Of a stretch of DNA of 64,000 nucleotides, positions 4,502-62,456 are shown piece after piece; within the stretch, counting starts at the first letter, position 1; each line of letters opens with the position of its first letter. The translations under genes were made by a program, and so were the position numbers. The DNA is from an archaeon. Its GTDB lineage: Archaea; Iainarchaeota; Iainarchaeia; Iainarchaeales; JAAZKV01. The notes beneath the pieces are model-generated. The model searched no databases, was not told where the DNA came from, and saw nothing but the letters and a program-made list of their open reading frames with translations. Where the stretch lies: positions 525,731 through 589,730 of the forward strand of contig JBAZYC010000001.1 of the NCBI GenBank assembly GCA_041659525.1, given 5' to 3'.

Positions 4502-4618
4502 TAGTCTCACCAATTAAATTATTTCTCTTGTAGAACCTTTTTAAACGTTCCCCAAAAGCCCAAATTTTGTTTTCACCAAAGCTTTTATTCTTTGGTTAGA
4601 AATCTCAAGAAAATCCTC

Positions 4619-4780
4619 GCCACCCCCGCTTTTATTGAATTTTTTCTTTGGACTCTGCCTTTCTCGGCTTAAACCTTTCCCCTGAGCCCAAGGCTCAAGG
4701 GTCGCCTGTTGGCTAAAGGATTTAATGCCCCCAAAAGCAGCGGAGCCGTCCATGAAAAAATTCTTTTTTGCGGAGGTGGC
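4619..4780 (+). promoter_or_regulatory. Extended imperfect hairpin (copy 1), a candidate SD-sequestering leader or structured RNA; strand uncertain
   Basis: Nested stems are GCCACCCCCGC/GCGGAGGTGGC, GAATTTTTTC/GAAAAAATTC, TGGAC/GTCCA, CTGCCTTT/AAAAGCAG, GGC/GCC and TTAAACCTTT/AAAGGaTTTAA. The apex is a mini-hairpin plus an unpaired TCGCCTGTTGGCT. The 3' basal arm contains GGAGGTG 6 nt before ATG 4785. A second copy lies at 59579-59725. Confidence 0.6.
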
Positions 4781-4784
4781 TTTA

Positions 4785-4934
4785 ATGGATTTTTCTTTAG
4801 ATATTGATTTCCCAAAACCAAATCAGGAAGAAATAAAATTGGTAAAATGGATTGCTAAAAACAATCCTGAAGATTTAGATTCAAGAGAACTTTGGGTTCT
4901 TGAACAAACTTTGGAAGGTGATGAAGATGATTGA
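4785..4934 (+). CDS. Small acidic protein of unknown function (49 aa), first gene of the homing-endonuclease cassette
   Basis: The product is MDFSLDIDFPKPNQEEIKLVKWIAKNNPEDLDSRELWVLEQTLEGDEDD. A perfect SD (GGAGGTG) lies 6 nt upstream. The peptide is conserved in copy 2 (..KPSKEEILLVKRIARSNPDDLDSRELWVLEQAIEGDEDD), including conservative substitutions. Confidence 0.6.
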   Translation: MDFSLDIDFPKPNQEEIKLVKWIAKNNPEDLDSRELWVLEQTLEGDEDD

Positions 4935-5847
4935 ATCATCGCCGGCATGGCACTTCCAAATAGATTATAAATCTTCAAAAGAGGGTTCTATAATGGAACC
5001 TTTTTTTTCAAAAGAAATGACTCCTGATCTAGCAGAAATCTGTGGCATCCATGCAGGAGATGGGCATTTAAGAAAACGAGACAATGTAAGACGTCTGCTT
5101 TGTTTAGATGGTAGTGTTGATGAAAAAGAATACTATGATACTCATGTTGTTCCGTTGTTTGAAAGAACATTTGGTATAAAAGTTAAACCAAGATTTTTTC
5201 CCAGCAGACACACTTATGGATTTTCAGTTAGTAATAGAAAAGTTTGTGGTCTCATCCATTCCCTTGGTTTTCCTTATGGTAAAAAAACAGTTTCTGTGAA
5301 AGTACCTGAAGTAATTTTACAGTCGAATGATTTGGGAGTAATTTATAGGTTTATTAGAGGTGTATTTGATACAGACGGTACAGTTTGTTTTAGACGAAGA
5401 AAAAGACTTAGGGGTAAAAGCGAAAACGCTAATAGACATACATATCCTCGGATTTTATTGGATGTATGCTCTAAAGATTTATGTTTTGGCTTAGGTGAGT
5501 TGTTACTAAAAACAGGCGTGTTTAGGTTTAATATTTCATCCCAAAGAGCAAAAGGAAATAGAAAAAAGAAATATAAACTATGTATAGCTGGCGATAAAAA
5601 CTTGTTATTATGGGTGCATAACATAGGTTTCAAAAACAATGTGAAACATAATCGAATTTTAATTTGGGATAAATTTGGCTTTAACCCGCCCAAGCTAACA
5701 CTTAACCACCAGTTGGAAATTTTGTCAGGTAAAATTGATCCAAATATTTTTTACAAAGACGGAGAGTTTTATCATGAGCGAGAAGAATCTGTAATAGCGA
5801 GAAACAAGCAATTGTTACGAAAAATGATTGAGGTGAGTGACACCTAA
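4921..5847 (+). CDS. LAGLIDADG homing endonuclease, double-motif, free-standing
   Basis: The two LAGLIDADG motifs are LAEICGIHAGDGHL and IYRFIRGVFDTDGTV. The start ATG (4921 or 4927) overlaps the stop of the small ORF (..GGTGATGAAGATGATTGA), with GGTGAT acting as SD. Confidence 0.85.
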   Translation: MKMIESSPAWHFQIDYKSSKEGSIMEPFFSKEMTPDLAEICGIHAGDGHLRKRDNVRRLLCLDGSVDEKEYYDTHVVPLFERTFGIKVKPRFFPSRHTYGFSVSNRKVCGLIHSLGFPYGKKTVSVKVPEVILQSNDLGVIYRFIRGVFDTDGTVCFRRRKRLRGKSENANRHTYPRILLDVCSKDLCFGLGELLLKTGVFRFNISSQRAKGNRKKKYKLCIAGDKNLLLWVHNIGFKNNVKHNRILIWDKFGFNPPKLTLNHQLEILSGKIDPNIFYKDGEFYHEREESVIARNKQLLRKMIEVSDT

Positions 5848-5883
5848 ACATTAAAAACTAAATGTGGCTTTAATTACATTAGT

Positions 5884-5970
5884 GGCTCTGTGTGCCAATG
5901 GATACGCGACAAGACTTCGGTTGTGAAAAGAAGAAATCTTGGGATGGGGGTTCGATTCCCTCCAGAGCCG
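5884..5970 (+). tRNA. tRNA-Arg (anticodon UCG) with a 15-nt intron after position 37
   Basis: The hand fold has acceptor GGCTCTG/CAGAGCC and D arm TGCC-AATGGATA-CGCG. The anticodon stem is CAAGA/TCTTG with loop CT-TCG-G, followed by the intron at 5921-5935 and then A. The T arm is GGGGG-TTCGATT-CCCTC and the discriminator is G. The mature length is 72 nt with no encoded CCA. Confidence 0.8.
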
Positions 5971-7927: not shown

Positions 7928-8014
7928 TTAACCACATTATTTGCTTTTCTTTTAACTTGTTGCTTAAGTTATTATACTACTTTTCTTTATATATTTGCGT
8001 TTACAAGTGGTTTG

Positions 8015-9544
8015 ATGCAGTTCACTGAAATGAAGCTAAAGAATATAGAATCTACTCCTTTGGCTGACATTTTCCAAGGGCTTTCCAATAATTTTTATGA
8101 TGTAAAACCTCTTCCTCTTTCTACAAAGGAAAAAGCTTTTGCAGATTTTTTAGTTAAAGAAATTCACAAAGGTGGAATTTTAAGAAAAGAATTTGATGGG
8201 GTGGGTGACAATTTTAATGATGAGTTTGTAGACAATGTTGTTTCAATTGTTCAGCTTAATGAATTAAATGAAAAATTACCTACAAGACAACTTTTTGCAA
8301 CTTTGCTTGAAGCTATGGAAGCATTAGTTTCAAAAGTAAAATTTGTTTCTAACAAAACTCTTTTTTCAGCTTATGTATTGCATAACGCAGTTGGGCTTAA
8401 GCAATTGGCTTTTTTTTCACTTGATGATGAGTTAGAAGAATTAATGATTAATGGTCCTGAAAGTATTTTTGTTTTTCACAAAAAGTATGGGATGTGCAAA
8501 ACTAATGTTGTAATTAAAGAAAAAGAGTTATCCGATGTTATTCAAAGAATTGCTATTACGATTAACAGAGTTTTTGATTCAAAGAATGCTCTTCTTGATG
8601 CTCGTCTTCCTGATGGGAGTAGAGTTAATGCCACTCTTGGAGATGTTTCTCCAACTGGAGCAACTTTAACTATAAGAAAATTTTCTGTAGTCCCACTAAC
8701 TATTCTTGATTTAATCCAGAGTAACACAATTACTTCTGAAGCAGCTGCTTTTTTGTGGTTAATGGTGGATGGACTTGGGGTAGATCCACAAAACATTCTT
8801 GTTGCGGGCGGAACTGCTAGTGGAAAAACAACTCTGCTAAATATTTTATCAAATTTTATTAAATTAAATGAGAGAGTGGTTTCAATTGAGGATACTATTG
8901 AGCTTTCTCTTCTTGGTAGAGAGAATTGGGTTGCGCTTGAAGGAAGAACTTCAGTTGGTTCTGAAGTTACAATGGATTCTTTGTTAAAAAATTCTATGAG
9001 GATGAGACCCGATAGAATAATTGTAGGAGAAGTTAGAGGGAGCGAAGCACTTACTTTGTTCACTGCAATGGATACAGGGCACCAAGGGTGTTTGGGGACA
9101 ATTCACGCAAATAATTCTCGTGAAACTTTAGTTAAACTTCAAGAGCGTCCGCTTAGTGTTCCTCAATCAATGCTTCCTTTGCTTGATTTTATTGTAATAA
9201 TGCAAAGAAGATATTCCAAAGACAAAGGGATGCAAAGAAGAATTATTCAAATAGTGGAATTGTCAAGAATGGATGACAAAGTATTATCAGGGGTTTTGTT
9301 TGAATACGATGATAAAAGTGATACATTAAGAAGAACTGAGATTCAAAGTAGAGTTATTGAAGAAATGGCAGAAAAAAGTTCTCTTGTAAAAAACGATTTG
9401 AAAAAGGAGTTAGAAGTAAGAAAGCACATTTTGGATTGGATGTTAAAAGAAAATATAAGAAAGCCACTTGAAGTTTTAGAAGTAATTGAAAGTTATTATT
9501 ATAATCCAGAAAAAGTATTATCTACAATTTCAGGATTACTATAA
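8015..9544 (+). CDS. Type IV pilus/archaellum-family secretion ATPase (FlaI/PilB/VirB11 superfamily), intact
   Basis: Walker A is GGTASGKTTLLN and the Walker B region is PDRIIVGEVRGSEA. LDARLPDGSRVNAT and GHQGCLGTIHAN boxes are present. ATG 8015 follows an in-frame TTG at 8012. Confidence 0.85.
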   Translation: MQFTEMKLKNIESTPLADIFQGLSNNFYDVKPLPLSTKEKAFADFLVKEIHKGGILRKEFDGVGDNFNDEFVDNVVSIVQLNELNEKLPTRQLFATLLEAMEALVSKVKFVSNKTLFSAYVLHNAVGLKQLAFFSLDDELEELMINGPESIFVFHKKYGMCKTNVVIKEKELSDVIQRIAITINRVFDSKNALLDARLPDGSRVNATLGDVSPTGATLTIRKFSVVPLTILDLIQSNTITSEAAAFLWLMVDGLGVDPQNILVAGGTASGKTTLLNILSNFIKLNERVVSIEDTIELSLLGRENWVALEGRTSVGSEVTMDSLLKNSMRMRPDRIIVGEVRGSEALTLFTAMDTGHQGCLGTIHANNSRETLVKLQERPLSVPQSMLPLLDFIVIMQRRYSKDKGMQRRIIQIVELSRMDDKVLSGVLFEYDDKSDTLRRTEIQSRVIEEMAEKSSLVKNDLKKELEVRKHILDWMLKENIRKPLEVLEVIESYYYNPEKVLSTISGLL

Positions 9545-22352: not shown

Positions 22353-22712
22353 TTAAGTTAGATTTGTGCATCTTTCTGCTGCTAAAAGCGGATCATTTTT
22401 ACTTTCTGAAAGAGCAGTACAACTTGCTATGCTAGGTGATTGTATACTTCCGCCAACTCCTACACCCATAAGACTTTTATCACACAAGTAACATCCGCAA
22501 ATTAAACTATTACTATCCAAAGTTTTACACATATAATCATAAGTTTGTATACTTCCAGTATCTTGTACTGGTCCAATAGTACTAACCATAAATGAGATTA
22601 CTACTGCTACAACTACAATTGCTGCTGCGAGTAATAATAAGTATTCAATTGCTCCCTGCGCACGAGAGAGTGCCTGTCCTCGTAATAGATTTTTTCCATT
22701 CATGTTTATCAC
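22353..22712 (-). CDS. Type IV pilin with Cys-rich C-terminal domain
   Basis: It has RAQGAIEYLLLLAAAIVVVAVVISFMV and a C-terminal domain with 6 Cys, including LICGCYLC. It is a paralogue of 48848-49189. Confidence 0.7.
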   Translation of the reverse strand: MINMNGKNLLRGQALSRAQGAIEYLLLLAAAIVVVAVVISFMVSTIGPVQDTGSIQTYDYMCKTLDSNSLICGCYLCDKSLMGVGVGGSIQSPSIASCTALSESKNDPLLAAERCTNLT

Positions 22713-22790
22713 GACAAATAGAGAGGAAAAGAAGTATTTAAACTTAATTATTAACTTCTAACAAAGAATATTGATTTTTTAAAAAGAAAA

Positions 22791-22819
22791 AGAAAGACTT
22801 TCATAAAGAAAGTCTTTCT
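22791..22819 (-). terminator. Hairpin plus T-tract downstream of pilin gene 22827-23135
   Basis: The stem is a perfect 12 bp, AGAAAGACTTTC-ATAAA-GAAAGTCTTTCT. On the minus strand it is followed by a T-rich run (CTTTTTCTTTTTAAAAAA). Confidence 0.55.
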
Positions 22820-22826
22820 GAGTTAA

Positions 22827-23135
22827 TTAGTTTTGTGGGCATTTTGAGTTTACTGTTTTTGTAAAATTTGTACAACACGTACAATTAGTGTATGTGCTTG
22901 TGCATCCGCCCAAAGTGTTTACATCTTTCATACATTTTAGTTGGTTGTTTTGTGAATTAATATCAGCTGCTGCTTCAGTAGTACTTGTTTTTCCTGTTCC
23001 TACTACGCTTGTTATTGCGATTATTACGATTGCTATTACTAGGATTGCTGCTCCTATGATTAGTAGGTATTCAATTGCCCCCTGTCCTCTTTCGCATTTT
23101 CTGAGTTGACAATGGACTTGTGCTTTTTGTTCCAT
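22827..23135 (-). CDS. Type IV pilin with Cys-rich C-terminal domain
   Basis: It reads MEQKAQVHCQLRKCERGQGAIEYLLIIGAAILVIAIVIIAITS. The C-terminus has CMKD..GGCTSTYTNCTCCTN..KCPQN. GGTGAT SD lies 4 nt before ATG 23135. Confidence 0.7.
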   Translation of the reverse strand: MEQKAQVHCQLRKCERGQGAIEYLLIIGAAILVIAIVIIAITSVVGTGKTSTTEAAADINSQNNQLKCMKDVNTLGGCTSTYTNCTCCTNFTKTVNSKCPQN

Positions 23136-23204
23136 TTTGATCACCTTTTAGTAAGTTAAACATGTTTTTAACTATTTAAAGATTAGCTTTTAAAAAATAG
23201 AAAA

Positions 23205-23228
23205 AGAAAGGCGAAAGAACGCCTTTCT
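23205..23228 (-). terminator. Hairpin plus T-tract downstream of small pilin gene 23243-23416
   Basis: The hairpin is AGAAAGGCG-AAAGAA-CGCCTTTCT. On the minus strand it is followed by TTTTTCTATTTTTT. Confidence 0.55.
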
Positions 23229-23242
23229 TTAATTAAATTTTT

Positions 23243-23416
23243 TTATGATCTTAACGCGTTTAAGTCATCCAGTTCATCAGCCGCTGTATTAGCGTCTACT
23301 TGTCCTTTTCCTGATCCAACAACGCTTGTTATTGCGATTATTACGATTGCAACAACTAGGATTGCTGCTCCTATGATTAACAGGTATTCGATTGCTCCTT
23401 GTGCTTTTTGTTCCAT
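23243..23416 (-). CDS. Small type IV pilin (57 aa), not in the ORF track; candidate major pilin
   Basis: Hand translation gives MEQKAQGAIEYLLIIGAAILVVAIVIIAITSVVGSGKGQVDANTAADELDDLNALRS. GGAGGT SD lies upstream and the gene has its own terminator hairpin. Confidence 0.75.
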   Translation of the reverse strand: MEQKAQGAIEYLLIIGAAILVVAIVIIAITSVVGSGKGQVDANTAADELDDLNALRS

Positions 23417-24576: not shown

Positions 24577-25716
24577 TCACATCTTTGGTTGTGTTAAATA
24601 TACTAATACGTTCATTCCAACGAAAACCATTGGCATGAATACCAAATAAATGATTAATAATATTGGCGGAGTAAGTGGTACCGCTTTAAATAAATCTTGC
24701 CCAGTTGCAGCAATTGGGGAGTTTCTTATTGCTCCAAGAATCATTATTGCCACTGGCATTACAATGCAGAGGAAAATAAATATTACTGCAAAGAAATTCA
24801 TTTTTTGTGAGAAAGAGTTTATTCTATCTTTCATATCTGCGGACACATCTTCTGCGATTTCATTCATTATATCGGAGAGATTTCCTCCTAGTCTCATTGC
24901 TCTTACTATGTGAGTTAGAGTAGTTCTTAGTGGTTTACTTTGTGTTCTTAGTGCCATGTGTTTTAGTGCAGCTACTGTATCAGTCCCTTCTTCTATTTCA
25001 GAAATAGTTCGTGCAAATTCTTCACTAAGCATCCCATAGTTTGTTGCTGTTATTGCTTGAATTGTTTTGTATAATCCAATTCCTGCTCTTAATTCAGTTG
25101 CCATGTGTCTTAGTGCAAATGGTAATTCTACTGAGCAAGCATTTCCTCTTGCGATTGCTTGTTGTCTTGGAATATTAACAACTATTAGTATTGCTACAAT
25201 TCCACCGATTAAAGCAAATAAAAAAGGAGTTATTGAGGCATAAACAATGTTTTTTGTTGCAGCAGCAATCATTGCTCCAACAAATAATCCTACTATAAAT
25301 GAAAATAAGGTTGCAATTATTCCTGCAGCACTTGTTAATGCTAAGTATTGGTTTGCCGAATAAGGCATGTTTGCTGAGTAAAGGTAAAACCCAACTTCTG
25401 CACTAAAAGGAACTTTTAGCATTTCTTTTAGGGGTTTCATTATTCCAATTAGTTTTAAATAAAAAGCTCCTACTTGTTGAGCGAGTTTTGAATCAAATCC
25501 TTCAATATCTTCTTTGTTTTCAAGTTCTGCTTTTGAGTAAGTATCTTCGGCAATTATCCCTCTTAATTCTTTTAGTGAACTGCTTACTTCATCAAATTGC
25601 ATTCCTTCTTCTCTATATTTTCGTTTCATTGTTTCAACGATTTTGTCAACTTCTACTTGGTCAGCGTATCCTTTTTCCTCAGGCATTATTTTCACCAAAA
25701 TTCTTTTTTTCCCCAA
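24577..25716 (-). CDS. Type II secretion system F-domain platform protein (TadB/FlaJ-like)
   Basis: It has LPFALRHMATELRAGIGLYKTIQAI plus TM segments. The alternative start ATG 25686 (MPEEKG) overlaps the ATPase stop. Confidence 0.7.
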   Translation of the reverse strand: MGKKRILVKIMPEEKGYADQVEVDKIVETMKRKYREEGMQFDEVSSSLKELRGIIAEDTYSKAELENKEDIEGFDSKLAQQVGAFYLKLIGIMKPLKEMLKVPFSAEVGFYLYSANMPYSANQYLALTSAAGIIATLFSFIVGLFVGAMIAAATKNIVYASITPFLFALIGGIVAILIVVNIPRQQAIARGNACSVELPFALRHMATELRAGIGLYKTIQAITATNYGMLSEEFARTISEIEEGTDTVAALKHMALRTQSKPLRTTLTHIVRAMRLGGNLSDIMNEIAEDVSADMKDRINSFSQKMNFFAVIFIFLCIVMPVAIMILGAIRNSPIAATGQDLFKAVPLTPPILLIIYLVFMPMVFVGMNVLVYLTQPKM

Positions 25717-27357
25717 TAAATTTGTTTGCTAGTAATGAAACTTCGCTTAAACTCCTAATGTTTTGATTAACTAATGAATCTAAGAATGTTTTTCTTGAAT
25801 TTAATTCTGCCTCTATGCGATCTTTTGGAGTTCCGGTGAAGTTTTGAAGGGTTTTTAGGTACTTACTATCAATAAGGGTCTTTTCTAGTTCGTCTCTTGC
25901 TGGATCTCTTTGGAAAACTGTTTGGGTTTTTGGATTACCTTCAAGTGCCCCGTAAACTTCAGCTATTTCACTTATTCTTCTTATAGTTCCTTTTTTTCTA
26001 TCATAATATCTGTGTTCTACAATTATGATATCAAGTCCTGACATCATAATACTTGGTACATTCATTGGGGGACTTGTTAATCTAATTATTGTTTCTTCCG
26101 GACTATTCGCGTGCACAGTTCCTAAACAACCATCGTGACCAGTATTCATTGCAGTGAATAAAGTAAATGCTTCTTCATGTCTAATTTCTCCTACAATTAT
26201 TCTGTCAGGTCTCATTCTTAAAGAATTTTTTGTTAATATATCCATTTTTAGTTCTCCTGCTCCTTCTAGTCCGGGCGGTCTTGATTCTAATCTTATACAA
26301 TGTTTTATTGGTAAATTTAATTCAGCCGTGTCTTCAATTGTTATTACTCTTTCTCTTTCATTTACAAATGAAGCAAGCACATTTAGTAGAGTGGTTTTTC
26401 CAGATCCTGTTCCTCCTGAAATTAATATGTTTGCAGGTTTTGTTCCAAGTCCATCAATAGCCATCCAAAGAAATGCGGCAGCTTCGCTAGTTACTGTTCC
26501 CATTCTAATTAAATCAATTATCGAATAAGGATCTGCTCTAAATTTTCTTATAGTTAATGTTCCTCCTGAGATTGATGCTGGCGGGATAGTTGCATTTACA
26601 CGTGAACCATCAGATAATCTTGCATCAAGTAATGGTGAGGACACGTCCACTCTTCTTCCAATTTCTCTTGCGATTTTATTTACGAGATCTTCTATTTCTT
26701 GTTCTGAAAAAATTCAATATTTGTTGTCATCATTTCGTATTTTCTGTGAAAAACATAAACAGGTTTTTTTGGGCCAACAATCATTATTTCTTCTAATTGA
26801 TCATCTTTAATTAAATCATCAATTAATCCATATCCAACCATCTCTCTAACCACTGCATCTGCATAGAAGGGTATTCTTTGTTCAGGTATTCGCATGTTGG
26901 GATTGCTTTTCATTATTTCAATTATTTTTTGTTTGTAAACAATTCTTCGTTCTTCAGGATTTCTAATTTTGTAGGGGGCAATTGAAATTAATCTTGTAGT
27001 TGCTTCTTTTAGAGTATTAATTATTTTTCTATCAGCTGAAGTTGGTCTTATTGTTGGAATAAAATAATATGCTAGCGGTTTTCCTGGTATTCTATATATT
27101 TTTACTTTTCCATAAGAATCAACTTCAATTTTTTTATTTTCTTCTAACTCTTTTTCTATTGCAGTTTTTTCTGCAGAAGTGGGTTCAATTGTTGCAGAAC
27201 TTTCTTTTTTGAATTCTTGCATATCTTTATGTTTCACTTCTTGAGCAATTTTTTCTTCTTTGTCCTCGGGTTTTGTTGGTTCTACTGGGGCTAATTCTTC
27301 TGCTTGAGTGGTGGCTTTTGCACTGCCAATAATGTCCTCAAGGTAATCTGTGCTCAT
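25679..27357 (-). pseudogene. FlaI/PilB-type pilus assembly ATPase interrupted by a 1-nt frameshift at a T6 run
   Basis: The N-terminal part (26692-27357) ends ..NIEFFQNKK*. The C-terminal part continues in the -1 frame as IFSEQEIEDLVNKIAREIGRRVDVSSPLLDARLSDGSRVNAT...GGTGSGKTTLLN. The frames overlap at 26692-26713, which contains A6 (plus strand) at 26707-26712. One extra T restores a 559-aa protein colinear with 8015-9544. Confidence 0.8.
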
Positions 27358-48847: not shown

Positions 48848-49189
48848 TTAATTCCATTCAAGTAAAGGATTTGTTTGGTGTCGTTCAGGAAGTTTTTCTG
48901 GACAATTTTGTGCAGAAGCCATTATAGTTATTGCATTTTCATTTATTTCTCCTTTTGTAGAATCTTTTAAGTAGCATCCGCAAAGAAGAGTGTTTTGATC
49001 AAGTCCTCCTATTTCTTTTGAGGCACACAATCCGTCAAGAGTTTGTTTGTTAATTGCGCCTCCACCCAAATCCAAAATTCCAATCATGTAAGATATAACT
49101 ACAGCTACTACTACAATTGATGCTGCTAAAATAAGTAAGTATTCAATTGCACCCTGTCCTCGAATGGATGTTTGTGTTTTATGTTGCAT
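48848..49189 (-). CDS. Type IV pilin with Cys-rich C-terminal domain
   Basis: It has IRGQGAIEYLLILAASIVVVAVVISYMIG. The C-terminal LLCGCYL motif is shared with 22353-22712. Confidence 0.7.
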   Translation of the reverse strand: MQHKTQTSIRGQGAIEYLLILAASIVVVAVVISYMIGILDLGGGAINKQTLDGLCASKEIGGLDQNTLLCGCYLKDSTKGEINENAITIMASAQNCPEKLPERHQTNPLLEWN

Positions 49190-56366: not shown

Positions 56367-57326
56367 GTGGTGAGATTTGTGGTTGAAGCTAAAACTGTTG
56401 ATAAAAAAATAAGTGTTTCAGAGAAACAAACTAAGAAAGTAATTAGAAAAGAACTTGTTTCTGCAAAAAAACAAGTAAAGAAAGAGAAAGCAAAGAACGT
56501 TAAGCAAGATGCTGATATTGAAATGCTAAAAAATGAACTTGCTAAGTTAAAGAAAAAGAAAGTTAAATCAGGCCACGTTTCAGAGTATAACTTTTTTATT
56601 AGAAAACAAATTAAATCCGGACTCACTTTTACTCAAGCAGCAAAACAATGGAGTAAATACAAAAGACTTCAACTAATGGATAAACGAAGACCAAGTGCAT
56701 ATAATCAATTCATTGGTTCTCAAATGCGTTTAGGAAAAACTTGGACTCAAGCAGTTGCTCTTTGGAAATTAGCTAAAGCGGGTAAACTCGGAAAGAAAGG
56801 AAGTACAAGAACAGTAACAAACACAGTTTACAAAACTCGAACAATTAAATCTAAACCAACTATAAAGTATAGAACTAGAACGATTACTTCTAAACCAAAG
56901 ATAAAATACAGAACAAGAACAATTACTTCAAAACCGAAGATAAAGTATAGAACTAGAACAAATACTATTATTAAAACTAGAACTATTAAATCAAAACCAG
57001 TTAAGAGAGCAAGAACTGTTAGAAGAATAGTTTCTTCTTCTCAAGGGTTTGATGTAAATTCTTTAAGAGAAATAATTAGATCTACTCAAAGTTCTTCTAT
57101 TTCAAAAACTGATTTGAGGGAAGCGATGAATCCAGATTCAGAGGAAATTGCTTTCAAAATAGTTCAAACCTATTTCATTGAAGTAGCAAGATTAGGATTC
57201 AAGAGACAATTGACTCTTGATGAAATAATTAACGCCTACTTTTATGCTCTAGCAAGAGTAAAAAGACAAAACGTTGAAATGAGTGAAGTAGCGGATGCAG
57301 TAAGAGAATCAGGAATGAAAAAGTAA
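56367..57326 (+). CDS. Basic repeat protein with two YABBY/HMG-like S.YN.FI motifs and 13-aa tandem repeats; putative DNA-binding
   Basis: It has HVSEYNFFIRKQIKSGLTFTQAAKQWSKY and RRPSAYNQFIGSQMRLGKTWTQAVALWKLA, followed by (KYRTRTITSKPKI) repeats. The start is uncertain, with GTG at 56367 or 56379. Confidence 0.5.
   Translation: MVRFVVEAKTVDKKISVSEKQTKKVIRKELVSAKKQVKKEKAKNVKQDADIEMLKNELAKLKKKKVKSGHVSEYNFFIRKQIKSGLTFTQAAKQWSKYKRLQLMDKRRPSAYNQFIGSQMRLGKTWTQAVALWKLAKAGKLGKKGSTRTVTNTVYKTRTIKSKPTIKYRTRTITSKPKIKYRTRTITSKPKIKYRTRTNTIIKTRTIKSKPVKRARTVRRIVSSSQGFDVNSLREIIRSTQSSSISKTDLREAMNPDSEEIAFKIVQTYFIEVARLGFKRQLTLDEIINAYFYALARVKRQNVEMSEVADAVRESGMKK
56829..57006 (+). repeat. In-frame 39-nt tandem repeat (about 4.5 units) encoding K(Y/T)RTRTI(T/K)SKP(K/T)I
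   Basis: Units start near 56832, 56865, 56904, 56943 and 56973. The two central units encode identical peptides but differ at many synonymous sites. Confidence 0.8.
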
Positions 57327-58359: not shown

Positions 58360-59454
58360 CTAAAATGGAATATCAGGGAACTCTTCCGAACTTGAGTATA
58401 GTTGTTCTATGTCTCCATTAGCTTTTCTTATTAATGTACGCGTAAGTTTGTGCCCTTCAACAAATTTTTTAATATCAGTTAAGAAAGTGGATGGTATTTT
58501 TCCATTAGATCTTTGAGTTTCCTTTTCCAGTACTTCTAAGAATTTTGGAACATAAACCGAGGTGGGACTTCTATAAAAAGTTTTTACTTCCTCAAGATAA
58601 CTCATAAATTCTCTATATTGTTCAGGTTTAAGTTTTATTATTCTTAGTGGTTTTACAGCATATCCTTTAGCAGGGTCTATTCTAAACATTAATTTTCTAA
58701 AAACTTTTCTAACTTTTGGAAGGGAATAAACCATTCTTCGTTCATGCATTTCTGGTCCTTGTTGTGCTAGTGCTTTTAATGTATCTCCAAGTGGAAGTGA
58801 AAAAGGATTTTTTGTCGCAGTGGTAAATATTTTTTGTAATTGTTTAAATTCAATTCTTTGTCTTTCTAATTGTCGTTCATTGTTTCTTTGATTTATTTCT
58901 TCCCACTTTGCATTTTCTTTTTGCAATTTAGCCTCTCTAATAGCAGCTTTTTCTTTTCTAATAGCTTTTTTTCTTTCCTGTATTCGCTCTTGTCTTCTTA
59001 GTAATTCATTTTCAGTTGCAATTCTGGGTTGAAGAGTTCTTCTTGGATCCATTGATTGTAAATTCAAACTTGTTTTCCTATCAGGAATTAGTTCATGATA
59101 ATTTCTGCGAGGATTGTCAAGTCTTAGTGCTGCTCTTTCAGGGTGTCCATGAGGGAGTTGTTCACTTCTTACATTTTTTTTATAATATTCAAAAAATTTT
59201 AATTTAAATCTAGATTGAGGAACTCCTGAGTGTAATGTTTGCCAAAAGGCTAAACGTGCTTCGTGTAAATTATTTGCAAATTCTTCTTTTCGATTACCAT
59301 ACTTAAAAACAGCTTCTTTTAGTAAATTTGAATTTCGTTGGCATAAATCATCAAATGCTCTGCTTCCTTTTGTTCCGCCCTTTCGAGATAAGCGTCTTAG
59401 TGGTATTTCTTCTTTAGGAGGTCGAGCCTTAAATCTAGAAAATCGAGTTGGCAT
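58360..59454 (-). CDS. Hypothetical Arg/Gln-rich basic protein
   Basis: This is a 364-aa ORF with a central charged coiled-coil (RRQERIQERKKAIRKEKAAIREAKLQKE). I recognise no motif. Confidence 0.45.
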   Translation of the reverse strand: MPTRFSRFKARPPKEEIPLRRLSRKGGTKGSRAFDDLCQRNSNLLKEAVFKYGNRKEEFANNLHEARLAFWQTLHSGVPQSRFKLKFFEYYKKNVRSEQLPHGHPERAALRLDNPRRNYHELIPDRKTSLNLQSMDPRRTLQPRIATENELLRRQERIQERKKAIRKEKAAIREAKLQKENAKWEEINQRNNERQLERQRIEFKQLQKIFTTATKNPFSLPLGDTLKALAQQGPEMHERRMVYSLPKVRKVFRKLMFRIDPAKGYAVKPLRIIKLKPEQYREFMSYLEEVKTFYRSPTSVYVPKFLEVLEKETQRSNGKIPSTFLTDIKKFVEGHKLTRTLIRKANGDIEQLYSSSEEFPDIPF

Positions 59455-59578
59455 ATATTAGTTATTCAATGGGAACATTTAATACTTTCTTAAAGAGTTT
59501 TTCAATTATCTTTTGTTAAACATTAGTTCTATTACATCCCCATATTTGAGTAAGTGATATTTTTTAATTAAAACTATT

Positions 59579-59725
59579 GCCACCTCCGCTTTGTCGAATT
59601 TTTTCGTTGGACTCTGCTTTTCTCGACTTAAACCTTTTCCCTTTAGGTCGCCTGTTGGCTAAAGGTTTAATGTCTCCAAAAGCAGCGGGGCCGTCCATGA
59701 AAAAATTCGTTTTTTGCGGAGGTGG
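59579..59725 (+). promoter_or_regulatory. Extended imperfect hairpin (copy 2), a candidate SD-sequestering leader or structured RNA; strand uncertain
   Basis: Nested stems are GCCACCTCCGC/GCGGAGGTGGC, CGAATTTTTTC/GAAAAAATTCG, TGGAC/GTCCA, CTGCTTTT/AAAAGCAG, GAC/GTC and TTAAACCTTT/AAAGGTTTAA. The apex is CCT-TT-AGG plus TCGCCTGTTGGCT. Confidence 0.6.
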
Positions 59726-59729
59726 CTCA

Positions 59730-59874
59730 AATGATTTTTTTAAATAATTTAAGTAAACCCTCAAAAGAGGAAATATTGTTAGTAAAAAGAATTGCAAGAT
59801 CCAATCCAGATGATTTGGATTCAAGAGAACTTTGGGTTCTTGAACAAGCTATTGAAGGTGATGAAGATGATTGA
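59730..59874 (+). pseudogene. Small acidic ORF of cassette copy 2, out of frame with its SD-served ATG because of a T8 run
   Basis: ATG 59730 (GGAGGTG 6 nt upstream) reads MIFFK*. The conserved peptide frame (..LNNLSKPSKEEILLVKRIARSNPDDLDSRELWVLEQAIEGDEDD*) is +1 relative to it. Removing one T from T8 (59734-59741) joins them. Confidence 0.6.
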
Positions 59875-61180
59875 TTCATCGCCGGCAAAGCACTTCCAAA
59901 TTGATTATAAATCTTCAAAAGAGATTTATTCTATGGATTTTGATTTATTCAAGTTAGCTTATTTTGAGAACATCAATAAAGTGGTTTATTTTAAGGGCAC
60001 TAAGTGCAGAGAGTTGTTTACAGAGCTTATAACTGAAGTTTGTACAAAAAAGAATTGTTTACGTCAACATTTAGCAAAAGAGCTTTCGGGGACTTATAAT
60101 TCGAATTTATCAACAATGCAATATTTTATTTCTTCCAAAGAATACTTTCCCATTTATTTAACTTCAAAAATTATTAGTAAACTAAGCGAAGAAAGACAGG
60201 AGTATTATAAAAATGCTTTCAATAAATCAGTAGAATATTTCAAATGTGGTACTTCAAAAGAATGGACTATTTTTCCAAAAAAATTATCTGCGGAACTAGC
60301 TTGGCTTTGCGGAGCGATTGCTGCAGATGGTTGGATTACTAAAGAATCTTTTTCAGGTTATGAGCGAATAGGAATAGCTGATTTTCATAAAAAAGCATTA
60401 CTAAAAGCCAGTCTTTTTTTTATGAAATGTTTTGGTCATGAACCCGTTGTAAAAAGGCACAACAAATTACAATGTTGGCAAATAGTTTTTCGTTCTAAAG
60501 CAATCACACAATTTTTTACCACCTATCTTGGTTTTCATTATGGGGTAAAAGTGTATGACATTTGTGAGCCAAAGATTTTGAAAAATTCAAAGTATCGCTT
60601 GGATTATGCAAGTGGGGTTATGAGCTTTGATGGATCAGTTGCGATGGATGGGGTTGTGTCTTTAGGTTGTGCAAGCGAAAAACTTGCTCAAGATATTCAC
60701 ACGATCCTTTTGGAAAATGGATTAAAAACTAGATTAACTAAAAAGAAATCTGAAAAGCAAAATTTATTTTTTGTAAAATCCGAAGGTTTGTTGCATAATG
60801 TGGATTCAAGTAAGTGGATTTCGTTGTTTGGGGTTGATATTGAAAAAGGTCAGAGGCTTGATGCACTTGTGAATGGATTTAAGGATACTCCTCTTTCTGA
60901 GCAAGATGCCTTACTTCGTCTTAAACACTTTGTAAATTATCCATCAAAAAATGAGTGTCCAATTTATCGCATTTTCTTTGTGTTGAAAAATAAAAGTTCA
61001 ATAAAGAGGCAGGATTTACTTAAATTAACTAAACTTCCGCATGTAACTTTTTACAAATATGTGTGGGTGTTAAGGAAAGCAAATATTGTCTCTTGTTATA
61101 CTGGTCAATTTTGGAGGGGATTTGAAAACACATACAAATTCAATTATAATATTGAAGAGTGGCGTGTTCCTAGTCTTTGA
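59861..61180 (+). CDS. LAGLIDADG homing endonuclease, double-motif, with an extra N-terminal region of about 130 aa
   Basis: The motifs are LAWLCGAIAADGWI and RLDYASGVMSFDGSV. The N-terminal 22 aa, MKMIDSSPAKHFQIDYKSSKEI, are shared with copy 1. The start is ATG 59861 or 59867. Confidence 0.8.
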   Translation: MKMIDSSPAKHFQIDYKSSKEIYSMDFDLFKLAYFENINKVVYFKGTKCRELFTELITEVCTKKNCLRQHLAKELSGTYNSNLSTMQYFISSKEYFPIYLTSKIISKLSEERQEYYKNAFNKSVEYFKCGTSKEWTIFPKKLSAELAWLCGAIAADGWITKESFSGYERIGIADFHKKALLKASLFFMKCFGHEPVVKRHNKLQCWQIVFRSKAITQFFTTYLGFHYGVKVYDICEPKILKNSKYRLDYASGVMSFDGSVAMDGVVSLGCASEKLAQDIHTILLENGLKTRLTKKKSEKQNLFFVKSEGLLHNVDSSKWISLFGVDIEKGQRLDALVNGFKDTPLSEQDALLRLKHFVNYPSKNECPIYRIFFVLKNKSSIKRQDLLKLTKLPHVTFYKYVWVLRKANIVSCYTGQFWRGFENTYKFNYNIEEWRVPSL

Positions 61181-62378
61181 ATAATATTTCAATTACGTCA
61201 CCATATTTTAATGGGTGATCGCGTCCAATTACTTGTTTAGTCTTCACATCAATAGCCCTGATGAAGCCTTTGCCCATATCAGTGTGTAGTGCAAATGCGA
61301 AATCAATTGCTTTTGAACCTGTTGGTAAAAGTAGACAATCAGGTATATATGCCCCATTTTTATCTTGGAGTCCTTTTGTTCCGCCAGGAAATACTGGAAA
61401 ATATCCTAGTAATTTGAATATTGCTGTATCAAGGCATTCTTGTACTCCAGTTGAGCCAAATTTTTCAAGTACATTGTGTTGTATTGTTTCTATTCCTAGT
61501 TTTTGTTTTTCGTTTAAGGTTCCTAAGATTTCAAAGTGGTTCCATCCGGGGTAGTATTTCATTATTCCTGCTTTTGTTGCTTTTCGTAAGGATAGTTCGC
61601 TTGCTGCGGAGCAAGGGATTATGTGAGTGTTAGGAAATGTTTCTTTCATTCTTAAAACATTTTTTTCTCCACTAGGTAAATCACATTTGTTTGCTGCAAT
61701 TATAATTGGTTTTGACCATACTCTGCATTTGTGTGCGAAAGTTCTTTTTTCTTCTTCAGTCCAAGTGTTCAAAAGTTTTTCATCTATTTTCATTTCCCTC
61801 ATTGCTTTTTCTATGTGCCAAGGAAGTATTTTTACTCCTGCAAGTGCTTGTGCAATTAGCATTACTTTTTTTCCAAAATCTTTTTCCTGTACTCTTGAGG
61901 TTTTCAGCCAATTGTTTTCAATAATTTTTAAGAACCATAATTCTATTTCTTCTTCAAGGAATTTTACATCTTCAATTGGATCGTGACTTCCTTCAGGGCA
62001 TTCTTTTCCTTCAGCATCAGTGCTTCCACTTGCATCCACTACATGGATTAGTGCATCAGCTTGACTTAAATCGTTTAAGAATTTATTTCCCAGTCCCTTT
62101 CCTTCGTTTGCTCCTGGCACAAGTCCAGCAACATCAATTAGTTCTACAGGAACATATCTAATTGGATTTTTTGGATCCTCATTAACCAAGAATCCGTGTC
62201 TAGGGTTACTTACAACATTAAAAAATTTTCCAGCATCTTCCACTCTAACAAATCCTATTCCTTTGTTTGGGTTAATTGTAGTAAAAGGATAACTAGCAAT
62301 TGCAACATCAATTAGAGTAGCACTTGAAAAGAAAGTACTTTTTCCAGAGGATGGTTTTCCAACTATTCCTATTTGCAT
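61170..62378 (-). CDS. Obg-like GTPase/ATPase (YchF/DRG family) with C-terminal TGS domain
   Basis: G1 is GKPSSGKST, G3 is DVAGLV and G4 is NKCD. The C-terminal TGS-like region has VIGRDHPLKYGDVIEI. ATG 62378 is the start. Confidence 0.8.
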   Translation of the reverse strand: MQIGIVGKPSSGKSTFFSSATLIDVAIASYPFTTINPNKGIGFVRVEDAGKFFNVVSNPRHGFLVNEDPKNPIRYVPVELIDVAGLVPGANEGKGLGNKFLNDLSQADALIHVVDASGSTDAEGKECPEGSHDPIEDVKFLEEEIELWFLKIIENNWLKTSRVQEKDFGKKVMLIAQALAGVKILPWHIEKAMREMKIDEKLLNTWTEEEKRTFAHKCRVWSKPIIIAANKCDLPSGEKNVLRMKETFPNTHIIPCSAASELSLRKATKAGIMKYYPGWNHFEILGTLNEKQKLGIETIQHNVLEKFGSTGVQECLDTAIFKLLGYFPVFPGGTKGLQDKNGAYIPDCLLLPTGSKAIDFAFALHTDMGKGFIRAIDVKTKQVIGRDHPLKYGDVIEILFKD

Positions 62379-62456
62379 AAACAACTCTTTCTAGGGCTGT
62401 TTTTTAAAAGCTAGCTTTTGGCTCTTCGTTTTAATCTTTTCGTATCTATTTCTTTT

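Follow-up and report, generated by a model that had tools for sequence, protein, structure and literature searches.

Free-standing LAGLIDADG nuclease cassettes with a portable RNA-and-peptide head beside conserved genes of an Iainarchaeota archaeon

Introduction

Two genes for LAGLIDADG nucleases in a 64-kb stretch of DNA (the window) from an Iainarchaeota (DPANN) archaeon close to Candidatus (Ca.) Forterrea raise the question of why one common head stands before two nuclease bodies that are only ~26% identical, and of how such genes come to lie beside conserved genes outside any intron or intein. The original prediction, made from the sequence of this stretch, had described them as autonomous operons in intergenic DNA, in which a conserved regulatory head is combined with interchangeable nuclease bodies. 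We consider it probable that both are mobile free-standing LAGLIDADG homing-endonuclease cassettes with a portable two-stage translational lock. The evidence consists of the shared architecture, the covarying pairing of a leader RNA, the association of the head with diverse LAGLIDADG bodies and of the cassettes with tRNA genes, the occurrence of empty sites, repeats at the flanks and signs of purifying selection. The loci of the relatives that were compared are denoted by L-numbers.

Architecture of the two cassettes

The head shared by both copies is ~360 nt long, is 82–91% identical between them and has sharp edges. It starts abruptly at GCCACC (4619 and 59579) and ends with AAAAGAG, directly before 4994 and 59934, and in the alignment the similarity of the two copies collapses on either side of it. 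A repeat search returned the shared module as two ungapped blocks of 77–84% identity. The head has three parts, namely a leader RNA, a small open reading frame (ORF) of 47–49 aa and a second hairpin over a stop/start overlap, and is followed by the nuclease body. The cassettes are 1.3–1.6 kb in size, and the small ORF and the LAGLIDADG gene are their only ORFs; no tyrosine or serine recombinase is found among these.

According to the ORF map, the nuclease ORF of copy 1 covers 4900–5847 (315 aa, or 308 aa counted from ATG 4921), and from its stop codon at 5845–5847 the tRNA-Arg(UCG) gene begins 36 nt further on, as placed by ARAGORN and Rfam. To the left of this copy, on the minus strand, lie genes for a Zn-ribbon protein (aS21-like) and EF-1beta. 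The ORF of copy 2 (439 aa from 59861) ends at 61180, between the gene of a 364-aa protein without a family match and, on the opposite strand, the gene of a YchF-related GTPase (NCBIfam, 489 bits). The positions originally given for both copies were confirmed by these coordinates. Both nuclease genes have their own start and stop codons and lie outside introns, rRNA, tRNA and in-frame host proteins, and the proposed free-standing status was thereby borne out. Rfam gave no Intron_gpI or rRNA match between 4500 and 6000 at E values up to 10, and only the tRNA was found. Cassette 1 lies wholly 5' of an intact tRNA with a separate 15-nt intron and is not a bulge-helix-bulge-bounded intron, although such motifs were not searched for at the cassette ends. 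Cassette 2 is positioned at the end of a protein-coding gene, which is likewise unlike an rRNA or tRNA intron.

There is practically no chance that the common 5' module arose as an assembly chimera or a collapsed repeat, or that the flanks are rRNA or intron fragments, the two outcomes that the original prediction had itself named as fatal. A 13-nt hairpin indel and differences at ~15% of positions distinguish the copies, the module recurs in at least 80 independent metagenome contigs and in six GTDB loci, and the only RNA that Rfam detects in the flanks is the tRNA. An assembly artefact is excluded.

The leader RNA

The leader of copy 1 is closed by a stem in which GCCACCCCCGC (4619–4629) pairs with GCGGAGGTGGC (4770–4780). 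This stem holds the Shine-Dalgarno (SD) sequence GGAGGTG (4772–4778), which is located 6–7 nt 5' of the ATG of the small ORF, and the complementary anti-SD, CACCUCC, stands at the 5' end of the leader. Across both copies, the 5' strand of the stem reads GCCACCyCCGC and its partner is GCGGAGGTGGC. The leader folds into an unbranched rod with 0 branch points, and the minimum free energy (MFE) of copy 1 is −71 kcal/mol (z −6.8). The largest difference between the two leaders is the indel of the 13-nt hairpin, which is self-contained.

A covariance model with 46 pairs (R1) was built from eight leader sequences, in whose alignment 14/46 pairs already show compensatory changes. R1 scores at least 88 leader copies (79 distinct) from 87 sources at 80–166 bits. 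In the 79 distinct leaders, 93.2% of the cells are paired, changes on both sides are seen at 28/46 pairs, and there are 290 compensatory cells versus 79 ± 8 in shuffles; when the partners are slid, pairing falls to 35–60%. Helices 1 and 2, which sequester the SD, are paired in 91–93% and also contain compensatory changes. In the SD/anti-SD helices, U-G pairs on the plus strand outnumber A-C combinations by 46 to 10, which favours the plus strand as the transcript. The score of R1 on the minus strand is ~100 bits lower than on the plus strand.

A degenerate pattern of the leader core occurs in at least 80 metagenome contigs, every one with the full architecture, and some contigs carry several head copies. 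Of 79 GTDB nuclease loci, only six have a leader that R1 detects; their labels are Forterrea, Iainarchaeum, ainarchaeum and plain "archaeon". The regions upstream of the Iainarchaeota homologs of nuclease 1 hold the same leader with compensatory changes. Leaders are 83–93% identical regardless of the body behind them, and one A-U for G-C change is common to the heads of copy 2, L111 and L123. The window heads each cluster with those of their own orthologous cassettes, and the head exchange is therefore old. The shuffling of modules between copies proposed earlier is thus supported, only not as a recent event between the two window copies. Recent gene conversion between the window heads is equivocal: the proportion of synonymous differences (pS) between the two window small ORFs is 0.41, a low divergence that could stem from constraint on the RNA or from a degree of conversion. 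For each head, however, the similarity to the heads of its orthologs is about equally high.

No Rfam 15 family matches the leader, either at the gathering score in the whole window or at E values up to 10 between 4500 and 6000. The leader pattern is also absent from IMG/VR, and a viral origin was rejected on this ground. Other assignments were tried and discarded as well. An RNA on the minus strand, acting as leader of the aS21/EF-1beta operon, is opposed by the U-G bias and by the covariance model, and the element accompanies the small ORF and the nuclease rather than aS21. The minus-strand ORFs across the leader (4541–4753 and 59564–59824) were rejected because, in the alignment, indels shift their frame between the copies. 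A kink-turn or L7Ae site in the asymmetric loop was dismissed by eye, its sequence being off consensus. The relative L003 has a natural deletion variant (2793–2831) in which only the closing stem is left (GCCACCTCCGC and GCGGAGGTGGC around a 15-nt loop), while its small ORF and nuclease are intact.

The small ORF and the coupling hairpin

The small ORF is conserved as a protein. Homologs of small ORF 1 were found by tblastn in L008, L009 and L014 at 39–54% identity, and the protein databases hold 18 homologs, all unnamed; there is no Pfam or NCBIfam family match. The proportion of nonsynonymous differences (pN) is 0.18–0.23 versus a pS of 0.6–0.7, with synonymous divergence saturated, and between small ORF 2 and its L111 ortholog these values are 0.10 and 0.27. 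Two conserved peptide types can be distinguished, type A with ...NPEDLDSRELWVLE...EGDEDD and type B with ...SETKGNPFGDG.... A few heads are fused straight to the body (L094, L100, L125, L145).

The small ORF ends in a conserved stop/start overlap, ATGATTGA. In type-A heads, the nuclease ATG precedes the stop codon of the small ORF by 1 or 5 nt, and in 39/41 distinct heads of this type the MFE fold has at least 6 bp around that stop, whereas in shuffled heads the mean is 21.6 and the maximum 27. The stems of this second hairpin covary as GGTGATGA/TCATCGCC, GGTGGTTTC/GAAACCACC and GGAGGCGATTT/AAATCGCC. An ATG/stop overlap in a hairpin loop is the classic arrangement of termination-reinitiation coupling. 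By analogy, the small ORF and the nuclease gene would be coupled in the same way. A programmed frameshift joining the two ORFs was considered and rejected, since the conserved ATGA-type overlaps favour termination-reinitiation.

The ATGATTGA overlap and the ortholog P0003 indicate that ATG 4927 and ATG 59867 are the likely starts of the nucleases. Hence the ORF sizes of 308/315 and 439 aa were read correctly from the sequence, while the starts assumed with them are less likely than those giving 306 and 437 aa. The same holds for the first 22 codons that both nucleases were said to share. The common leader and small ORF were confirmed, but these codons are largely the 3' strand of the conserved coupling hairpin, and the tail that they encode is disordered in the structural model (pLDDT <50).

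The nucleases and their interchangeable bodies

Nuclease 2 scores above the Pfam cut-off for LAGLIDADG_3 (22.5 bits) and nuclease 1 just below it, and several homologs of nuclease 1 carry PF14528. The two motifs read GIHAGDG and GVFDTDG in nuclease 1, and AIAADG and MSFDG in nuclease 2. In an alignment of 18 members of the nuclease 1 family, D47/G48 and G153 do not vary, and conservation is at least 90% at D150, T151 and D152. The AlphaFold (AF2) model of nuclease 1, computed from these 18 family members, has a pLDDT of 87.1 and a pTM of 0.85, with low confidence for residues 1–27, and its predicted structure has the doubled alpha-beta-beta-alpha-beta-beta-alpha fold in one chain. With this model, the best PDB matches in Foldseek are all LAGLIDADG proteins (Tli VMA intein endonuclease, I-Tsp061I, PI-PfuI, PI-SceI and I-DmoI; entries include 7qsu, 2dch and 1dq3), and WhiA and bI3 maturase are also among the matches. 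Nuclease 2 matches PI-PfuI (1dq3) by sequence with an E value of 1.6e-4.

The 129 database homologs of nuclease 1 are all from DPANN, and Ca. Forterrea is the closest genome (67% identity). Nuclease 2 has orthologs in L097, L111, L115 and L123 at 58–66% identity. Both nucleases evolve under purifying selection, with a pN of 0.19–0.29 that is far below the saturated synonymous divergence (pS 0.62–0.76).

The same head stands before several LAGLIDADG subfamilies and occasionally before other genes, in agreement with the predicted combination of one head with exchangeable bodies. Among the large ORFs downstream of heads, 35/53 match the hidden Markov model of the nuclease 1 family with widely spread scores, and LAGLIDADG motifs were recognised by eye in most of the remaining bodies. 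Five other bodies were searched against Pfam, and four of them match LAGLIDADG_3, two above 22.5 bits and two below; two of these four also show helix-turn-helix domain matches. In L128 (2589–2781 and downstream), L147, L148 and L088, the head precedes an ArdC-N/M78-like protein, an N6 DNA methyltransferase or an AAA_14+DUF4143 ATPase. These are gene types typical of mobile elements or defence.

Cassette 1 and the tRNA genes

The tRNA-Arg(UCG) gene beside cassette 1 is the only tRNA gene in the window. Linkage of this kind is systematic: in 33/39 GTDB loci, a family 1 nuclease gene is followed within a few tens of nt by tRNA-Arg(UCG) on the same strand, and this linkage spans Iain-, Woese-, Pace-, Nano- and Micrarchaeota. 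The head-bearing metagenome cassettes abut genes for tRNA-Arg(CCU), Ile, Thr, Leu, Glu, Pro and Gln. In other subfamilies, the stop codon of the nuclease ORF often lies within the first 9–15 nt of the tRNA. Examples of nuclease genes abutting a tRNA are L017 (3260–3331), L059 (3226–3309), L074 (3232–3315) and L077 (3132–3216). Other subfamilies stand 5' of tRNA-Leu(CAA) (5/5 and 2/2 loci) and tRNA-Leu(AAG) (3/4), and there are further pairs with tRNA-Ser(GCU), His, Phe, Val and more (GTDB loci L007–L085).

The comparison with related genomes, proposed earlier as a check, yielded a cassette-free site. In the EF-1beta contexts of L166, L167, L168 and L169, tRNA-Arg(UCG) adjoins aS21 without a cassette, and in one further contig a mere 178-nt gap separates a hexapeptide-transferase gene from aS21. 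The EF-1beta of L166 is 89% identical to that of the window, and this locus has no nuclease gene. Its empty site reads GCTTTTATTCTTTGGTCATTATTATTCCCTTTAGTG followed by the 5' half of tRNA-Arg. The TATA-like motif GCTTTTATTCTTTGGT is identical in both genomes and lies 20 nt 5' of the tRNA in L166, and 22 nt 5' of the leader in the window; cassette 1 (~4597–5883) is therefore situated between the tRNA and its TATA-like box. Thus, L166 defines the boundaries of cassette 1, and "intergenic DNA" is too loose a term for its site. We infer from the sequence that GCTTTTATTCTTTGGT would be the promoter of the tRNA and would now be used by cassette 1. The AT-rich box ATTAAAAACTAAAT at the cassette 3' end, of which ATTAAAAACTAA is conserved in L001, is probably the replacement promoter for the tRNA. 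Transcription would then start at ~4610–4616, and the anti-SD would lie at the very 5' end of the transcript.

The tRNA-Arg(UCG) of L166 (3020–3108, minus strand) also has an intron, and it differs from that of the window in the acceptor stem and D-arm (GGGCCTG... vs GGCTCTG...). Enrichment of introns in the nuclease-linked tRNA-Arg genes was not retained as an explanation, because 14 have and 17 lack an intron and there is no clean baseline. Remnants of tRNA 5' of family 1 genes were sought in 32 GTDB loci, and the single weak case (L022, 13 nt) argues against a general target duplication in this family. In L145, 22 nt of the 5' end of tRNA-Gln are repeated, and L142 has a 37-nt repeat; both lie at the same relative positions as the remnant beside cassette 2.

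Cassette 2 and the YchF-like GTPase gene

Cassette 2 is flanked by direct repeats of the GTPase gene. The left repeat (59516–59558) matches the right one (61177–61219) at 32/43 positions (74%, z 4.9), and the right one represents the last ~15 codons of the GTPase gene, i.e., a replacement end adjoining the cassette. By hand translation, the remnant reads HLLKYGDVIELMFNKR* and the functional gene HPLKYGDVIEILFKD*, each ending in a stop codon. The convergent arrangement of nuclease 2 and GTPase genes recurs in L111 and L115, the two loci in which both genes are present, where the nuclease 2 ortholog abuts the 3' end of the GTPase gene. As judged from these sequences, cassette 2 evidently entered the GTPase gene at its 3' end, brought a replacement end and left 43 nt of the old one as a remnant, so for this copy, too, the site is more precise than intergenic DNA. 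The empty sites, remnants and repeats together indicate that the cassettes occupy the edges or insides of conserved genes and bring along the piece that keeps the gene working.

In L115 (1217–1387) and L097 (2–163), pseudogene fragments with the last 54–57 GTPase codons, 68–70% identical, lie 5' of a leader of the cassette 2 type. An unrelated ORF on the reverse strand is situated between fragment and leader in L115.

Table 1. Positions of the cassette components and of the adjoining genes in the window.
Feature	Position	Strand	Description
TATA-like box GCTTTTATTCTTTGGT	4581–4596	+	22 nt 5' of leader; putative tRNA-Arg promoter captured by cassette 1
Leader RNA, copy 1	4619–4780	+	162 nt; rod-like hairpin; R1 155.8 bits
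Small leader ORF 1	4785–4934	+	49 aa; type A, ...NPEDLDSRELWVLEQTLEGDEDD
Coupling hairpin 1	4917–4943	+	GGTGATGA paired with TCATCGCC; loop with ATG 4927 and stop TGA 4932–4934
LAGLIDADG nuclease 1	4927–5847	+	306 aa; alternative start 4921; LAGLIDADG_3 20.2 bits
AT-rich box ATTAAAAACTAAAT	5850–5863	+	cassette 3' end; centre ~27 nt 5' of tRNA; ATTAAAAACTAA conserved in L001
tRNA-Arg(UCG)	5884–5970	+	Rfam tRNA 43.7 bits; 15-nt intron 5921–5935, canonical 37/38
GTPase remnant (left direct repeat)	59516–59558	−	43 nt; displaced original 3' end
Leader RNA, copy 2	59579–59726	+	closing stem 59579–59589/59716–59726; SD 59718–59724; R1 164.1 bits
Small leader ORF 2	59731–59874	+	47 aa; 77% identical to ORF 1 over 39 aa
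Coupling hairpin 2	59857–59883	+	loop with ATG 59867 and small-ORF stop 59872–59874
LAGLIDADG nuclease 2	59867–61180	+	437 aa; N- and C-terminal extensions; LAGLIDADG_3 30.2 bits
YchF-related GTPase gene	61170–62384	−	NCBIfam PRK09602, 489 bits

Proposed mechanism

We hypothesize that expression of the nuclease is locked in two stages. In the first stage, the leader rod would pair the anti-SD CACCUCC with GGAGGUG, the only strong SD of the region, and ribosomes would normally be shut out. In the second stage, the ATGATTGA-type overlap at the end of the small ORF would be held in the loop of the second hairpin, which would also pair the SD-like GGUGAUGA of the nuclease gene. Only a ribosome that has passed through the small ORF and opened the second hairpin would then make the nuclease, and the net effect would be a very low and tightly coupled expression of a potentially toxic nuclease. 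With regard to the host genes, cassette 1 would use the TATA-like box of the tRNA for its own transcription and supply the AT-rich box to the tRNA, and cassette 2 would sit ~16 codons in from the 3' terminus of the GTPase gene with a replacement gene end. Presumably, the nucleases cut unoccupied versions of these conserved sites, and the cassettes are copied in by repair. The presence or absence of the cassette at an otherwise conserved site, together with the remnants of target genes, is consistent with homing.

Several observations weigh against this mechanism. The leader contains invariant helix sequences, with UUAAA/UUUAA in 79/79 and also GAAUUUUUUC/GAAAAAAUUC. Plain occlusion of the SD needs no invariant helix sequence, so the leader probably does more than lock; binding of a factor is one possibility, and a concealed TATA-like box with oligo-T terminators another. 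Outside the SD helices, the G-U counts do not separate the strands, and the minus strand of copy 1 folds slightly better than the plus strand (−79 vs −71 kcal/mol). Upstream of copy 2, the best AT-rich box puts the start inside or after the anti-SD. On the plus strand of the window, GGAGGTG is found only at the two leaders, and any SD-like tetramer at −25 to −3 precedes just 10/49 long ORFs; most genes here thus lack an SD, and how much SD-dependent initiation counts is uncertain. Family 1 keeps its synteny across long evolutionary distances and evolves under purifying selection, which also fits a domesticated gene, and flanking direct repeats are not made by ordinary homing.

Alternative explanations

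The invariant parts of the leader can be read in two other ways. The leader could be a sensor, riboswitch-like or a protein-binding riboregulator, in which the SD opens solely in response to a signal, for instance a metabolite, a ribosomal protein, an RNA-binding protein, or the nuclease or small protein itself. This function would be compatible with the proposed lock, and we take it to be a real possibility, if a rather unlikely one. It would account for internal loops and helix sequences that stay invariant amid freely covarying neighbours and for the 83–93% identity of leaders across unrelated bodies, and LAGLIDADG proteins are known RNA binders, e.g., the bI3 maturase among the Foldseek matches. 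However, no Rfam family matches at E values up to 10, the unbranched rod has no multi-helix junction resembling a ligand pocket, and the L003 head works with a bare closing stem. It is unlikely that the invariant parts are instead signals in the DNA, either an internal BRE/TATA-like box (B recognition element, BRE), AAAGGATTTAAT, or oligo-T terminators on both strands that insulate the cassette. From the internal box, a short transcript lacking the anti-SD would result, as with the late promoter of T4 I-TevI inside its inhibitory hairpin. TTAAA/TTTAA in 79/79 leaders, T6 tracts on both strands in helix P2, the resemblance of AAAGGATTTAAT to the TATA-like boxes at 4581–4596 and 5850–5863 and the T4 precedent (PMC2988022) agree with such signals, but the strong compensatory covariation in P1, P3, P4 and P6 needs pairing of a transcript, and transcription from the putative internal start would meet a second T6 tract before the SD, so that the short transcript would be terminated as well.

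Two further readings concern the proteins. The nucleases, above all family 1, could be domesticated host proteins tied to the neighbouring tRNA rather than selfish homing enzymes, for example a WhiA-like DNA binder, an RNA chaperone, a maturase or a part of the tRNA transcription unit. The linkage to tRNA-Arg(UCG) across DPANN phyla, the synteny kept in L001, L003 and L005, a dN well below dS and the Foldseek matches to WhiA and bI3 maturase all point in this direction. We nevertheless hold domestication to be quite unlikely, in view of the conserved catalytic aspartates of both motifs, the presence or absence of the gene among close relatives such as L166, the many paralogous subfamilies, each beside a different tRNA, the several copies per contig, and the target-gene remnants and repeats. 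The small ORF and the nuclease could also form a toxin-antitoxin-like pair in which the acidic small protein inhibits or escorts the nuclease and the head sets their ratio, as might be expected from a conserved protein with the acidic tail EGDEDD and from obligatory translational coupling. Such a pair is very unlikely: the same heads are served by two unrelated small-ORF types and by the ORF-body fusions, the small ORF, which has no family match, is missing from L005/L036, L013, L016 and L018, where the nuclease is kept. Mobile homing-endonuclease cassettes with a translational lock remain our preferred reading.

Comparison with known systems

The closest parallels are the free-standing seg and mob genes of T-even phages, which also lie outside introns and inteins and beside conserved genes, in the case of SegB among tRNA genes. 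The ribosome-binding sites of I-TevI–III, segB and mobE are sequestered by stable hairpins, and embedded or captured host promoters favour retention of such genes (PMC2988022). In the window, the SD is likewise inside a stable stem 5' of the start (GGAGGUG/CACCUCC), and the TATA-like AAAGGATTTAAT inside the rod is a candidate counterpart of the T4 internal promoter. However, the T-even enzymes are of the GIY-YIG or HNH type and belong to bacteriophages, whereas those of the window are LAGLIDADG proteins in archaeal chromosomes. The T-even hairpins are short and gene-specific, while here a leader of ~150–160 nt, a leader ORF and a coupling hairpin form one module for many nuclease families.

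The intron- and intein-encoded LAGLIDADG enzymes (I-DmoI, I-Tsp061I, PI-PfuI and Tli VMA) have the same fold as double-motif monomers (Foldseek E values of 5.6e-11 to ~1e-7; for I-DmoI against the nuclease 1 model, a TM-score on the target of 0.70–0.77), and both motif aspartates are conserved in them as in the nuclease family. The window genes differ from them in lying outside an rRNA intron or host protein and in having their own leader and small-ORF operon, and by sequence nuclease 1 shows no similarity to the solved LAGLIDADG structures and nuclease 2 only a marginal one. For cassette 2, the nearest likeness is gene-end replacement in fungal mitochondria. In the Allomyces atp6 case, reportedly described by Paquin, Laforest and Lang in 1994, a mobile endonuclease ORF is said to replace the gene end. 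As in cassette 2, the insertion in these cases reportedly lies near the 3' end of an essential gene, supplies a new, functional end and leaves the old one as a pseudogene fragment; they are, however, said to occur in organelles and mostly with GIY-YIG ORFs, unlike the LAGLIDADG gene in an archaeal chromosome.

The integrase elements of the SSV1/pNOB8 type also occupy tRNA-gene sites and are flanked by repeats of a tRNA end (PMC3293823), as is L145 by its 22 nt of tRNA-Gln. Unlike these elements, the cassettes have no integrase, and the LAGLIDADG nuclease is their sole enzyme. In collaborative homing, as cited in PMC2988022, a free-standing nuclease gene stands beside a gene with an intron, which resembles tRNA-Arg with its 15-nt intron. 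In contrast to that system, about half of the nuclease-linked tRNA-Arg genes are without an intron, and L166 has the intron without a nuclease.

Novelty and implications

The proposal that this organisation is undescribed agrees with the absence of a matching family in Rfam, Pfam, NCBIfam and the searched literature, in which no paper links LAGLIDADG genes with DPANN tRNA genes; the part of the Ca. Forterrea genome paper that was consulted makes no mention of these elements. Free-standing nuclease genes, occlusion of the ribosome-binding site, translational coupling and gene-end replacement are known concepts. What appears to be new is the conserved portable RNA-and-peptide head, its use across nuclease families and the systematic pairing of nuclease and tRNA genes in DPANN. 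With 28 covarying pairs in 79 distinct sequences and without a counterpart in Rfam, the leader is a well-supported new structured RNA family, and its regulatory logic is clear and testable in archaea, for which known cis-regulatory RNAs are few. LAGLIDADG genes of the free-standing kind occur commonly on DPANN chromosomes, where their link to tRNA genes is systematic. Nuclease subfamily and tRNA identity correspond, and the targets are predicted by the empty sites, which offers a source of new meganuclease specificities. The cassettes would also represent two harmless, splice-free ways of sitting at an essential gene, one by promoter capture and replacement and the other by a replacement gene end.

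According to Randau and Soll, as cited in PMC3488258 and PMC3293823, disruption of tRNA genes protects against mobile elements. As stated in 2012, direct evidence for this idea was lacking (PMC3293823). The candidate tRNA-targeting nucleases make the proposal directly testable. A more far-reaching view, which at present we find doubtful, is that DPANN hold a large unrecognised population of LAGLIDADG genes that target tRNA genes, one subfamily per tRNA species, as the long-sought selective agent behind the frequent disruption of archaeal tRNA genes. Introns, and perhaps split genes, would then interrupt the recognition sites and give immunity, an intron-bearing tRNA allele and the adjacent nuclease gene could spread together as in collaborative homing, and the head would be a new class of portable riboregulator exchanged among the mobile genes of these archaea.

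Other features of the window

Directly left of cassette 2, the 364-aa protein (58360–59454, minus strand) is very basic and matches no family in Pfam or NCBIfam. A ~104-nt repeat occurs in four copies, 62–88% identical, at 22353–23409 and 48848–49189. Three of them lie in small paralogous genes (105–119 aa) with class III signal peptides (PF04021), which are type IV pilin-like, and the fourth is at 23306–23409. In ORF 56367–57326, 39-nt tandem repeats (56818–57029) encode a 13-aa repeat rich in K, T and R; this 319-aa protein has no Pfam match. Inverted repeats at 8657–9134 and 26083–26566 are 73–74% complementary and overlap ORFs 8012–9544 and 25679–26650, and the positional homologs of the former ORF in related loci have a T2SSE ATPase domain.

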